Source: an uncultured Candidatus Bathyarchaeia archaeon
Lineage (GTDB): Archaea > Thermoproteota > Bathyarchaeia > Bathyarchaeales > Bathycorpusculaceae
Direction: 5' to 3'
NCBI GenBank assembly: GCA_964475545.1
Contig: CAYYXF010000001.1
Coordinates: forward strand, 9,107-73,106
DNA: 64,000 bases
Position 1 is the stretch's first letter; the number at the start of each line of letters is the position of its first letter. The notes under the pieces are model-generated. The model worked only from the letters and a program-made list of their open reading frames with translations. It had not been told where the DNA came from and searched no databases. Below are positions 7,907-12,044 of the stretch, piece by piece. The translations under genes were made by a program, and so were the position numbers.

Positions 7907-9490
7907 TTGGAGAGTTGTTCACCTTTGAGCACACCTGAGAAACTGCGGAAAGCCGTTGAGCTAACCATTGCCGCAGGATACCAGCTAGACCAGGAGGCAT
8001 TTGGATTCTTAACCATAATAGCCGCAACGTCAGACCCGAGTGAAGTAATGAGCGAAGCGATAAAAAAGATGGAAAGCTTAAGCGAGAAACCGCCATTCAT
8101 TGAAAGAGGCTTCTTGGAGCAATTGCTAGAAAAAGCGAAATCAGCAGAAGAAATAGTGGATATCGCGCCAGAAGAACGAACTCCAGAACTGCCCGAGTCA
8201 CAGACAAAACAGTTGACAGAGGGGAAGACGTACTTCCACTCCTACGCAAAGGAAGTCGAGGCAGACATTACCATAATCGAAGATCCTAGCACCAAACTGC
8301 ACACAAGCGGCACTGTCGACGATTTTCTGGCCTATTTCCGAGATCGCTTTAAGCGAACAGAGAAGATGCTGCGACAAAGGATAGACGTCAAAAGCGCTTC
8401 ATCAGTCTTAGACGCTCTTAAGGCTGCGCCCAAGACGAAGATGAAGATTATTGGCATGGTAACTGAGAAGAGAGAATCGAAACAGCGGACTATCCTATCT
8501 GTTGAGGATTTGCAGGCCAATATCACGGTGCTCGTGCCGCAGAACGCCTCTGAAGAGCTAAGGAAAAAGGCACAACTTCTCTTGCTTGATCAAATAGTCT
8601 GCCTAAGCGTTGTCAAGACAAGAAGCAACCTCCTGGTTGCTGACGACATAATCTTGCCTGAAGTAGGTCAAAAACAGCCCCACAAGGCCCCGATTCCAGT
8701 CTACGCTGTGTTAACTTCAGACATGCATGTTGGCAGTACACAGTTCCAAAGAGAATCGTTCAACCGTTTCATTTTATGGCTGAACGGCAAATACGGAAAC
8801 GACCAGATGAAGGAAATCGCAAGCCATGTCAAGTACGTTCTGATTGCTGGCGACATAGTCGATGGTGTAGGAATCTACCCCAATCAGGTCAAGGAATTGG
8901 CAATCAGAGACGTATATAGGCAATATCGGGTAGCTGCAAAATATATGGAACAAATCCCTGACTACATACAGGTAGTGGTCATACCAGGAAATCACGACGC
9001 ACCAAGAAAAGCCTTGCCTCAGCCTGCGATTTCAAATGAGTATTTGGAGACTCTTCAAGAGTCAAGAGCTGTTTGCTCTCTTGGCAACCCTTGTTATCTC
9101 AGTTTGCACGGTGTAGAAGTGCTGATGTATCACGGGCGTAGCTTGGACGACGTGATCTCCACAGTCCCAGACATGAATCATAACAACCCGGAGAAAGCAA
9201 TGCGTCTGCTTTTGCAGAGCCGCCATTTAGCGCCAATTTACGGTGCGAAGACCACGCTGTCACCGGAGAGCAGAGATTTCCTTGTCATAGAGCGCGTACC
9301 AGACATATTTCACGCCGGCCACATCCATGCGCTAGGCTACTGCAATTACCGTGGGGTTTTGGTTGTAAATTCAGGCGGTTGGCAAGCACAGACAGGTTAC
9401 ATGCAGAGACTCGGGTTTATGCCGACTCCTGGGAAGGTGCCAGTTGTGAACCTTCAAACGTTGGAATCCATGGTAGTTTCGTTCTCCTAG
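7907..9490 (+). CDS. polB: DNA polymerase II (PolD) small subunit DP1
   Basis: 527-aa ORF (TTG start as called). It carries the calcineurin-like phosphoesterase motifs DMHVGS, GDIVDGVG, IPGNHD and AGHIHA, plus the OB-fold region typical of DP1. Confidence 0.9.
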   Translation: MESCSPLSTPEKLRKAVELTIAAGYQLDQEAFGFLTIIAATSDPSEVMSEAIKKMESLSEKPPFIERGFLEQLLEKAKSAEEIVDIAPEERTPELPESQTKQLTEGKTYFHSYAKEVEADITIIEDPSTKLHTSGTVDDFLAYFRDRFKRTEKMLRQRIDVKSASSVLDALKAAPKTKMKIIGMVTEKRESKQRTILSVEDLQANITVLVPQNASEELRKKAQLLLLDQIVCLSVVKTRSNLLVADDIILPEVGQKQPHKAPIPVYAVLTSDMHVGSTQFQRESFNRFILWLNGKYGNDQMKEIASHVKYVLIAGDIVDGVGIYPNQVKELAIRDVYRQYRVAAKYMEQIPDYIQVVVIPGNHDAPRKALPQPAISNEYLETLQESRAVCSLGNPCYLSLHGVEVLMYHGRSLDDVISTVPDMNHNNPEKAMRLLLQSRHLAPIYGAKTTLSPESRDFLVIERVPDIFHAGHIHALGYCNYRGVLVVNSGGWQAQTGYMQRLGFMPTPGKVPVVNLQTLESMVVSFS

Positions 9491-9543: not shown

Positions 9544-10794
9544 TCAGCTTCCACCGCCCCTGTGCTTTGAAAGGCATTTGGGCTCGTAGTCAACCAAACG
9601 TCCAAGCCTGTTATCACTGGCGAAAACGTTCTTGATGAGACTACGCGCTATTTCAAGTCTTATCTTCTTTGTGCGACCGTACCTCCCCATACTTATGACT
9701 TTCGCATTTAATAGGCCCATGGAGTCAAGCTCATTCACTAGCGAGCTTAGCCTTCGCTGGGTCAAGGGGGTCACCCCCATCTCTGCACATAGTTCATTGT
9801 AAACCTCGTAAATTTCGCCTGTAATTGCCCTAAGCACGTCAGCCTTGTTCAAGTGGTAGACACTTAGGACGACAAGTTTGGAATGCAAAGTCAAATTCTT
9901 CAGGGCTTCAATTACGCGGTTATGTTCAATGTGCTTCTCAGCCTCTCGAACGTGATCTTCGAGCACGACGCTTGCGCCTGATCGCTCCGCAACCTCGCCT
10001 GCAACTCGAAGAAGATCCAAAGCTCGCCGCGCATCCCCATGTTCAGCTGCAGCCAAGGCGGAACAGAGGCTCAGCGCTGACTCAGACAGCGCACCTTCAC
10101 AGAAAGCTGAAGTCGCACGCTCAAAAAGAATATTCCTTAGCTCACTGGCATCATAAGGCCTGAAAACCATCTCCTCTTCGCTGAGAGAACTCAGAACGCG
10201 AGGATCCAAAAACTCCTTCAACCGGAGATCGTTAGATATACCAATTAGGGAAACCTTACTGCTGGATAGAGTTTCATTTACCCTTGTCAATTCATAAAGA
10301 ACACCATCGCCTCGGATCTTTATCAACGCATCAGCTTCGTCCAAAGCTATTATGAATATAACCCTCGACACGTCCAGACCCGCCCTGAAACGATCAAACA
10401 ACTCTCCCACTGAGAGTCCCGTGAAGGGGACTGAAAGGCCTACACTCTGACATAAGCTAGCGAAGATCCGATATTCTGATCCAACCATCCGGCAGTTCAC
10501 ATAACAGAACTTGACCGGCGCGCTGAACTCCTTTGCTTTGGTCTCGAGATGACTCAGCACATATTTCGCTACTGCCGTCTTGCCAGTCCCAGTCTTCCCA
10601 TAGATGAAGACGTTGGAGCTGCGAGCACCCTTCAAAGCCGGAGCCACCGTCTCGCCAAGCTGTCTGATTTGCTCTTCCCTGTGAGGCAACCTGTCAGGCA
10701 AATAGTCATCTCGTAGGACCTCCCTATCCTTGAATATCTTTGCATTGTTGACGAATTTTTCGAACACGACATCAAGTATGTTAGGTTCAGGCAT
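9544..10794 (-). CDS. cdc6: Orc1/Cdc6 replication initiator
   Basis: AAA+ Walker A (GKTGTGKT), Walker B (IIALDEAD), sensor regions and a C-terminal winged helix. The ORF track starts at GTG 10827. The ATG at 10794 gives a 416-aa protein of typical length. It lies directly next to ORB repeats. Confidence 0.9.
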   Translation of the reverse strand: MPEPNILDVVFEKFVNNAKIFKDREVLRDDYLPDRLPHREEQIRQLGETVAPALKGARSSNVFIYGKTGTGKTAVAKYVLSHLETKAKEFSAPVKFCYVNCRMVGSEYRIFASLCQSVGLSVPFTGLSVGELFDRFRAGLDVSRVIFIIALDEADALIKIRGDGVLYELTRVNETLSSSKVSLIGISNDLRLKEFLDPRVLSSLSEEEMVFRPYDASELRNILFERATSAFCEGALSESALSLCSALAAAEHGDARRALDLLRVAGEVAERSGASVVLEDHVREAEKHIEHNRVIEALKNLTLHSKLVVLSVYHLNKADVLRAITGEIYEVYNELCAEMGVTPLTQRRLSSLVNELDSMGLLNAKVISMGRYGRTKKIRLEIARSLIKNVFASDNRLGRLVDYEPKCLSKHRGGGS

Positions 10795-10940
10795 ACATTT
10801 TCCCTCAGCAAGCTCCAGAGGTAGCACCTCTCTTTCCAGTTGAAGACATAAGCTCTGTCGTACAGAAAAATGGATGTACCCTACAAGAATCCTAAAACAG
10901 AAGCAGCTTGAACGTAGACTAAATCACCTGACATGACTGC

Positions 10941-10965
10941 CACACCCCAGAATTTCCTGTGGAAC
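10941..10965 (-). repeat. ORB-like origin recognition box 1
   Basis: The reverse complement reads GTTCCACAGGAAATTCTGGGGTGTG. It is 20/25 identical to ORB-2 and in inverted orientation. Confidence 0.75.
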
Positions 10966-11124
10966 TCTTTATTCCTTTGAGAAGTAATGTTGATTTCTTC
11001 TTCGTAGAAGAAAATACTCTGAACGGTAAGTATACAAAAATGACTATATTGCTTACTGTTGAACAAATTAAACATACACTACAAAGTTTCACATTACTAG
11101 TGCACTGAGTTTGCAGGCCTGAAT

Positions 11125-11149
11125 GTTCCAGTGGAAATCATGGGGTGTC
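11125..11149 (+). repeat. ORB-like origin recognition box 2
   Basis: GTTCCAGTGGAAATCATGGGGTGTC. It contains the classic archaeal ORB core TCCAGTGGAAA followed by a G-string. Confidence 0.75.
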
Positions 11150-11390
11150 TCGCTAGCAGTTCATCCTTTTTTCAAATATCCTCAGCACCGCCTGCATCCT
11201 GTACTTGTTAGTACACTTTCATCGCTAGCTACCTTCGCTTATTTGGCTCGCAGTTTGATAGATTCTCCCCCATATTTTTAGCGCACGCGTGTTCACTTTT
11301 TGAGAAGACCTTGTGAAATTAGCTTGATACTGTTTGATTTTCAGCCCTCGTTTCCAAATTATTTACTGCTTTATGCCTGTTTTATGTGAA

Positions 11391-11418
11391 CTAGACACCC
11401 CTGCGTTTCTACTGGAGA
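11391..11418 (-). repeat. ORB-like origin recognition box 3
   Basis: The reverse complement reads TCTCCAGTAGAAACGCAGGGGTGTCTAG, with the same TCCAGTnGAAA..GGGGTGTC architecture as ORB-2. Confidence 0.65.
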
Positions 11419-11612
11419 TCAGCTTATTTCCTTCAGTCCTTTCCGGTTCTGTCTTTCAGACAGCTGTGAAGCGTGTGTTGCATAACAGACTGCAATTTAT
11501 CCTTCTTTTCAGATTTCCTCCCTGAAAAGCGTCCTCTAGCCAGGCGCCGTTTCACCATAACAGCTATAACCTGTGAACTGTAGACTTGTGAACACCCAAG
11601 CGTGTTTCGCCA

Positions 11613-12044
11613 ATGCCTACGAGAAAGATGCGCGTCGAACTATTCGATAATGATGGCAATCGGTATACGATAGCGTTCGAAGGGCAAGTGACTAGAGAGA
11701 AAGCAGTACGGCTACTAGATTTGGTTGAACTCCTCGGTGGAATGCCTAATGAAGGAGGCAACGCTGAACCAAACCTGAATGTTCTTGGTAATGGACTCTC
11801 AAAATATGGCAGGGTTCGAGCGGTTCTCCAAAGGAGCTTTCCTCTCATTTGGTTCTGTTCAAAAGAGGTTCAAAATGCTTATGAGCAGGAATTCAAGGAG
11901 CCAATAACACTGAGCACTGTGGCTACGTACCTCTCAAGGCTGGCGACGAAAGGAGCGCTGATGAAGGCCGGGGCTCTTAACAGCCTAAAGTACAGGCTCG
12001 TGCAAAGCCCTCCAAAGGCCCAAGTTAAGCAATCAATACACTGA
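11613..12044 (+). CDS. Hypothetical protein with a C-terminal winged-helix-like domain
   Basis: 143-aa ORF immediately right of the origin. The C-terminal half (ITLSTVATYLSRLATKGALMKAG..LKYRL) looks like a wHTH recognition helix plus wing. Confidence 0.5.
   Translation: MPTRKMRVELFDNDGNRYTIAFEGQVTREKAVRLLDLVELLGGMPNEGGNAEPNLNVLGNGLSKYGRVRAVLQRSFPLIWFCSKEVQNAYEQEFKEPITLSTVATYLSRLATKGALMKAGALNSLKYRLVQSPPKAQVKQSIH

Follow-up and report, generated by a model that had tools for sequence, protein, structure and literature searches.

A probable oriC1-type replication origin beside orc1/cdc6 in an uncultured Bathyarchaeia archaeon, with TTCACA boxes around its distal ORB

Within the 64,000-nt stretch of Bathyarchaeia DNA analysed here (the window), the region from 10818 to 11600 is very probably a chromosomal replication origin of the oriC1 type, specified by the Orc1-1-type initiator that is encoded next to it. 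A preliminary description of the same DNA had read the region as an origin, and this reading is supported by the Orc1-1 gene, by repeats that match the consensus of origin recognition boxes (ORBs), by a standard layout, by a motif that is unique in the genome, by conservation among relatives, and by a switch of GC skew in a closed chromosome of the same genus (G006). The arrangement had been called textbook, and rightly so; it is the ordinary archaeal origin in which a duplex-unwinding element (DUE) lies between two inverted ORBs, beside orc1/cdc6. The preprint on Ori-Finder-Arch, a tool that was run on 16,409 archaeal assemblies, describes the order ORB(-)/DUE/ORB(+) as the minimal pattern with which an archaeal origin functions (bioRxiv 10.64898/2026.08.15.744077).

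Our literature search found no paper on a Bathyarchaeota origin. The present locus would fix the origin, and with it the arrangement of the replichores, in a large class of uncultured archaea, and the class-specific ORB matrix serves to find the origin in draft genomes. By itself, an origin built on the familiar Orc1-1/oriC1 plan adds little to what is known; the more useful lead is a set of TT(C/A)ACA boxes and an origin-linked winged-helix gene, which are common to the cultivable ammonia oxidisers as well. The features discussed below are collected in Table 1.

Table 1. Features of the proposed origin and its flanking genes (window coordinates)
Feature	Position	Strand	Remarks
DNA polymerase D small subunit (DP1) gene	7907-9490	plus	Pfam DNA_pol_E_B 3.4e-19, Metallophos 5.2e-12
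orc1/cdc6 initiator gene, Orc1-1 class	9544-10794	minus	416 aa from the conserved ATG 10794
Degenerate ORB (mini-ORB)	10818-10843	minus	TCAACTGGAAAGAGAGGTGCTACCTC (10843-10818); ends 24 nt upstream of the cdc6 ATG
ORB1	10941-10965	minus	GTTCCACAGGAAATTCTGGGGTGTG; PWM 31.7 bits; left member of the inverted pair
Duplex-unwinding element (DUE)	10966-11124		159 nt; 67.9% A+T versus 52.7% for the window
ORB2	11125-11149	plus	GTTCCAGTGGAAATCATGGGGTGTC; PWM 35.4 bits; right member of the inverted pair
Box F, degenerate (TTCTCA)	11301-11306	minus	accompanied by an inverted AGTGAA (11292-11297)
TTCACA box E	11312-11317	minus	11 nt from box F
TTCACA box D	11385-11390	minus	directly abuts the G-string end of ORB3
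ORB3	11391-11418	minus	TCTCCAGTAGAAACGCAGGGGTGTCTAG; PWM 35.3 bits; distal, same orientation as ORB1
TTCACA box C	11465-11470	minus	box scan
TTCACA box B	11572-11577	minus	72-locus alignment, box scan
TTCACA box A	11587-11592	minus	72-locus alignment, box scan
Gene for an unnamed 143-aa protein	11613-12044	plus	origin-adjacent; relatives L033-L112 and L208-L257

The three repeats listed in the preliminary description read exactly as it quoted them, and they exceed chance: TCCANNNGAAANNNNGGGGTGT has three exact matches in the window against 0.15 expected, a count that was reached in 0 of 100 shuffles. It had been pointed out that an origin would be doubtful if the motif were frequent in other places. 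This is not the case, as even with one mismatch allowed the whole 1.53-Mb, 162-contig assembly contains the same three sites only. A PWM built from 227 ORBs of relatives, with the window's own sites left out, was also run across the genome in search of further origins, as had been suggested; the three ORBs score 31.7-35.4 bits, and the next best site reaches 15.6 bits, which leaves a gap of 16 bits. No other ORB cluster was found by this genome-wide scan, in a MAG rated 100% complete.

Each ORB is a repeated element made up of a dyad and an asymmetric G-rich part, and matches the published consensus. A repeat search recovered ORB1 and ORB2 as an inverted pair with 24-nt arms (83% complementary) and a spacer of 159 nt, and ORB3 lies 241 nt beyond ORB2. 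The dyad halves of ORB1 and ORB2 are proximal to the DUE and their G-strings distal, a placement that fits the published model of opposed ORB polarity. A search of Rfam with positions 10700-11700 returned no RNA family, its sole match (uxuA, E=0.44) being due to chance.

For the stretch bracketed by the inverted pair, the earlier hand count (159 bp, about 68% A+T) agrees with the computed values given in Table 1. The most AT-rich 40-mer of the entire gap (11031-11070, 77.5%) falls inside it. A TTCTTC/GAAGAA hairpin to which attention had been drawn is present at 10995-11012, but it is not conserved in relatives and was given too much weight. The blocks of the DUE that are conserved in an alignment of 72 loci are, in minus-strand reading, TCAGAGTAT (11022-11014) and TATGTTTAAT..CAATAT (11076-11046).

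A Sulfolobales-type ucm/UBP module was considered for this locus and rejected: there is no conserved 11-12-bp ucm in the DUE of 74 relatives, and the neighbour protein lacks a sequence match to any solved chain. The window's own DUE does contain TATACAAAA (11032-11040, plus strand), which matches 9 of the 12 nt of the Sulfolobus islandicus ucm probe ATTATACAAAAG. This resemblance is probably a matter of chance, because only 2 of the 74 relatives have even TATACAA in their DUE.

When delimiting the initiator gene, one should keep in mind that the mechanical ORF extends to a GTG at 10827 (9544-10827). With that start the non-coding gap is 785 nt long (10828-11612), as had been reported; however, the ATG at 10794 is conserved in the 72-locus alignment and the relatives align from there, so that the gene is best taken as 9544-10794 and the gap as 818 nt. 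The encoded protein contains the Pfam domains Cdc6_C (2e-27), Cdc6_lid, and AAA, and, at 505.6 bits, exceeds the cut-off (501) of the NCBIfam equivalog NF001625. Among solved structures, it is closest to Orc1-1 of S. solfataricus (2QBY_A, 4.9e-112) and ORC1 of Aeropyrum pernix (2V1U, 3.4e-107). As judged from its sequence, the product is an initiator of the Orc1-1 clade, with full-length AAA+, lid, and winged-helix regions and a score above the cut-off of the clade model. The DP1 gene is convergent with cdc6 and faces its 3' end.

A mini-ORB had also been described upstream of cdc6 (10834-10846). The element is real and conserved, but it had been placed on the wrong strand; it reads on the minus strand, which is that of cdc6. 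It differs from the full repeats in having TCAA where they have TCCA and GGTG in place of GGGG; a conserved CCTC comes next. An ORB core with at most two mismatches is found about 48 nt upstream of cdc6 in 49 of 81 loci (class consensus TCCACAcGAAATAacGGTGTTgCCTC). Its location, 24-49 nt before the ATG, suggests autoregulation, and we infer that it is a probable site at which Orc1 controls its own gene.

There is a second Orc1/Cdc6 paralog (G000, contig C79, 148-1254; L002), which is 30% identical to the first. It is classed as Orc1-2-like because it passes NF001623 and has 1FNN as its closest solved chain. The gap upstream of this gene is short, and no ORB-like repeats were found near it, either on contig C79 or at its counterpart in G006; the paralog is probably not an initiator.

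Conservation was assessed with 80 oriented loci from other Bathyarchaeia species, in which cdc6 is 75-87% identical; per-element counts are given out of 81. In the relatives, with approximate positions counted from the start of cdc6, ORB3(+) lies at -610, ORB2(-) at -352, and ORB1(+) at -168; many loci have a degenerate ORB at -48 as well. About 75 of the 80 other species show these elements in this order and with constant spacing, and the full '+-+' or '+-++' pattern is seen at 71 of the 80 loci. ORB1 is present in 80 of 81 loci, and ORB2 and ORB3 in 75 of 81 each, with a median spacing of 260 nt from ORB3 to ORB2. The inverted pair around an AT-rich element is conserved in 75 relatives; the cores of ORB1 and ORB2 are 153-177 nt apart, and the median A+T content is 72% versus 57% for the locus. 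Across the order, the layout persists down to a cdc6 identity of 58-69%. Three records (L036, L107, and P0043) carry a Bathyarchaeia-type cdc6-oriC locus or neighbour protein under the names Candidatus Acidoferrum, Nanoarchaeia, and candidate division WWE3, and are probably mis-binned or mislabelled.

The 143-aa protein encoded next to the origin is modelled with an N-terminal beta-beta-alpha module, a variable linker, and a C-terminal winged helix (AF2; mean pLDDT 71.5, with 81-93 in the winged-helix part). A Foldseek search returned only generic wHTH folds (E ~6e-3), and the protein has no Pfam or NCBIfam family and no sequence match to any solved chain. It has 2676 relatives, and among the best 120 of these nearly all that are named are called 'hypothetical protein'. 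The gene is syntenic in all 71 loci that have enough flank (71/71), also across the order, and a profile search across 201 genomes of the phylum found it exactly once in each of 132. Families f22 and f36 have it beside an ORB cluster with no cdc6 less than 5 kb away. A 99%-identical neighbour protein (P0001) is encoded on a public contig of 1,555,052 bases, so that there is probably a single-contig, near-complete genome from a very closely related strain.

From 11301 to 11592, the minus strand carries five exact copies of TTCACA and one TTCTCA, and nowhere else in the assembly are there at least four TTCACA per 350 nt (5 found, 0.12 expected). Boxes A and B have the start of the neighbour gene on one side and a TATA-like CTATAAC (11563-11569) on the other. 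In 71 relatives the boxes occupy six fixed positions around ORB3: two at the start of the neighbour gene, one before ORB3, one on the G-string of ORB3, and the remaining two 11 nt apart and followed by an inverted copy. What had been proposed as a 'degenerate fourth ORB' (11593-11609) is no such element, but overlaps a conserved block, GGTGTTCACAA, that belongs to the TTCACA boxes. Genome-wide, pairs of TTCACA occur at chance level (11 versus 12 expected), so that they reveal no TTCACA regulon. In family f11, which belongs to the same order, the box reads TTAACA, and the element should therefore be written as TT(C/A)ACA.

With less certainty than attaches to the ORBs, the TTCACA boxes around ORB3 may be regarded as a second cis-element of the origin that would be bound by another factor, the best candidate being the neighbouring winged-helix protein. 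Alternatively, they could be an autoregulatory operator of the winged-helix gene and nothing else, with no part in replication. The location of boxes A and B between the TATA-like element and the ATG would suit such an operator, as would the fact that boxes and gene are adjacent in most lineages; however, four of the six boxes are 120-300 nt upstream and flank ORB3. Family f29 speaks against an operator as well. Here, the gene is located 15-20 kb from cdc6 and has no boxes upstream, whereas the cdc6-adjacent ORB cluster keeps about seven of them at fixed positions. The boxes thus stayed with the ORBs after the gene had moved, which argues that they belong to the origin and not to the promoter of the gene, and we consider a purely autoregulatory operator rather unlikely.

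As to what might bind the boxes as part of the origin, the 143-aa winged-helix protein is, we infer, a candidate. In families f22 and f36 the gene is found beside ORB clusters that lack TT(C/A)ACA boxes, which counts against a simple link between gene and box. Family f13 has lost neither the ORB(-)/DUE/ORB(+) core nor its two Orc1 paralogs; the 143-aa gene is absent from it, and its origin has no TTCACA in 1.5 kb. In two loci of this family (L258 and L259) a small ORF of about 110-115 aa is located between ORB(+) and cdc6, and the place of the 143-aa gene at the ORB pair is taken by a MarR/TrmB-like gene, whose 3' end adjoins the pair. Orc1-2 was also weighed as the binder and rejected: boxes are present in several amoA genomes and in family f23, all of which have only one Orc1, and are absent in f13 despite its Orc1-2.

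Ammonia-oxidising archaea, represented here by closed genomes that were recognised by amoA only, offer a close parallel to this arrangement. They have the same gene order (DP1, cdc6, ORBs, winged-helix gene) and, as read by eye, an inverted ORB/DUE/ORB core beside cdc6. Between three and seven sense TTAACA boxes occur in 10 of their 11 intergenic regions (P 1e-6 to 1e-9), the core of the box having A, not C, at position 3; one amoA genome of higher GC content has TTCACA instead. The ORBs of the ammonia oxidisers differ from those of Bathyarchaeia in their sequence, GCCTGGAGTGGAAATAAAGGGGT, and in that the two strongest form a direct repeat. In one of these records, which is 1,645,259 bp long and may be that of N. 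maritimus SCM1, cdc6 stands at the very start (197-1282) and the neighbour gene closes the sequence. The single origin of N. maritimus is cited in PMC4010727 as having been mapped by marker frequency (Pelve et al. 2013).

We tentatively suggest that the origins of Bathyarchaeia, ammonia oxidisers, and several other Thermoproteota families may share a cis-element that has not been described before, namely 5-8 TT(C/A)ACA boxes at set positions around the ORBs, together with a dedicated, single-copy 143-aa winged-helix partner, in most cases encoded next to the origin, that would bind these boxes and modulate firing. This suggestion is a possibility worth pursuing, and one on which we would not yet rely. 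If true, the 143-aa protein and its boxes would play a role comparable to that of ucm and UBP in Sulfolobus, with unrelated parts.

Among the known systems, oriC1 of Sulfolobus (S. solfataricus and S. islandicus) shares several properties with the locus. The initiator matches Sso Orc1-1 at 4.9e-112, there are three ORBs of which two are inverted around an AT-rich DUE and one is distal, and the origin lies directly upstream of orc1-1 (PMC12141716). The two differ in that the DUE alone measures 159 nt here, whereas the whole ORB3-DUE-ORB2 region of S. islandicus spans about 130 bp; in that the ucm (ATTATACAAAAG) is not conserved here; and in the extra degenerate ORB at the cdc6 promoter and the TTCACA boxes of the present locus.

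Pyrococcus abyssi oriC and Haloferax volcanii oriC1 are similar in being single, cdc6-adjacent origins with ORBs and mini-ORBs, and in having replication genes, including PolD DP1, nearby (PMC4010727; PMC1868953). Over its first 13 nt, ORB2 agrees fully with the ORB consensus published for euryarchaea, GTTCCAGTGGAAAC-AAA----GGGGG (PMC1868953), and its match to this consensus covers GTTCCAGTGGAAA. The G-string reads GGGGTGT here, unlike the long G-run of haloarchaea, and there are far fewer ORB copies than in Pyrococcus.

In the published model, Orc1 monomers sit on ORBs with fixed polarity; where two ORBs are opposed, the winged-helix and lid regions of the monomers point at one another from either side of the DUE, the place of MCM loading (PMC6742236; PMC12141716). 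By analogy with the work on Sulfolobus, Aeropyrum, and Pyrococcus, one ATP-bound Orc1 monomer would occupy each ORB of the window in a fixed polarity, its winged helix contacting the dyad and the ISM of its AAA+ domain the G-string. The monomers on ORB1 and ORB2 would then be opposed across the DUE and load MCM there, giving rise to bidirectional replication. ORB3 would act as an auxiliary site, and the degenerate ORB, which ends 24 nt before the cdc6 ATG, would serve in self-repression by Orc1.

The preliminary description had recommended that GC skew be inspected for a switch at this place. Such a switch is found at the ORBs of G006, and the archaeon's own contig agrees; the signal is weak in G014, a representative of another genus, and no minimum falls at the ORBs in G188, a closed genome of another family. 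On the 98-kb contig that contains the window (C1), the cumulative G-C minimum lies at 20-22 kb, which is the position of the ORBs, and left and right sides differ with P=0.04. The nearest closed genome, G006 (2.17 Mb, OY970072.1), was examined through a profile in which 55% of the chromosome was sampled, and its global minimum lies just before the ORBs; the maximum is at 1.16-1.18 Mb, compared with an antipode at 1.01 Mb. In a contiguous 310 kb divided into 5-kb bins, the cumulative minimum falls in the bin that holds the ORBs, with 22 of 28 bins negative on the left and 26 of 32 positive on the right (P=1.5e-6).

Across the entire G006 chromosome the difference between replichores is 0.024, with P=0.025 at the pre-specified site and P=0.30 when all candidate sites are scanned (permutation test). 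The minimum of G014 is 4-8 kb from the ORBs, and its left/right difference is not significant (P=0.13). In G188 no skew minimum occurs at the ORBs, after which the slope only flattens. Skew thus gives strong support in the nearest closed genome and does not speak against the origin elsewhere, though this support is not uniform and the signal is weak genome-wide.

These profiles bear on another explanation of the locus, in which the ORBs are Orc1 operators and no more, regulating cdc6 and the winged-helix gene, which are divergent; replication would then begin at another place or by recombination, and the origin would be dormant. The degenerate ORB 24-49 nt upstream of the cdc6 ATG would be in keeping with such a role, the skew of G188 is ambiguous, and origin-independent growth has been documented in Thermococcales (PMC11005403, PMC5663688). 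As some archaea grow without using their origin, conserved ORBs are no proof of use in every condition. On the other hand, an inverted ORB pair around an AT-rich element of conserved length is the geometry of a loading site and not of an operator, the skew minimum coincides with the site in both G006 and the own contig, and the complete-rated MAG offers no other ORB cluster. We therefore regard operators without an active origin as very unlikely.

An integrated plasmid or virus with its own orc1, as proposed for the secondary origins of Sulfolobus and haloarchaea (captured elements are the presumed source of archaeal secondary origins that have an orc1 of their own; PMC4010727), can be practically dismissed as the source of the locus, given that the initiator is the conserved Orc1-1 equivalog, that the locus shows synteny with DP1 and has been retained in 80 species as well as in ammonia-oxidising archaea, that its composition resembles the rest of the genome, and that the chromosome-wide skew minimum of G006 is located at it.

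The sampled profile of G006 displays one further feature, a secondary local minimum near 1.45-1.47 Mb from which the curve rises until about 1.75 Mb. This minimum does not coincide with the second Orc1 paralog, which is located at 0.569 Mb, and it could reflect either a rearrangement or a second initiation zone.
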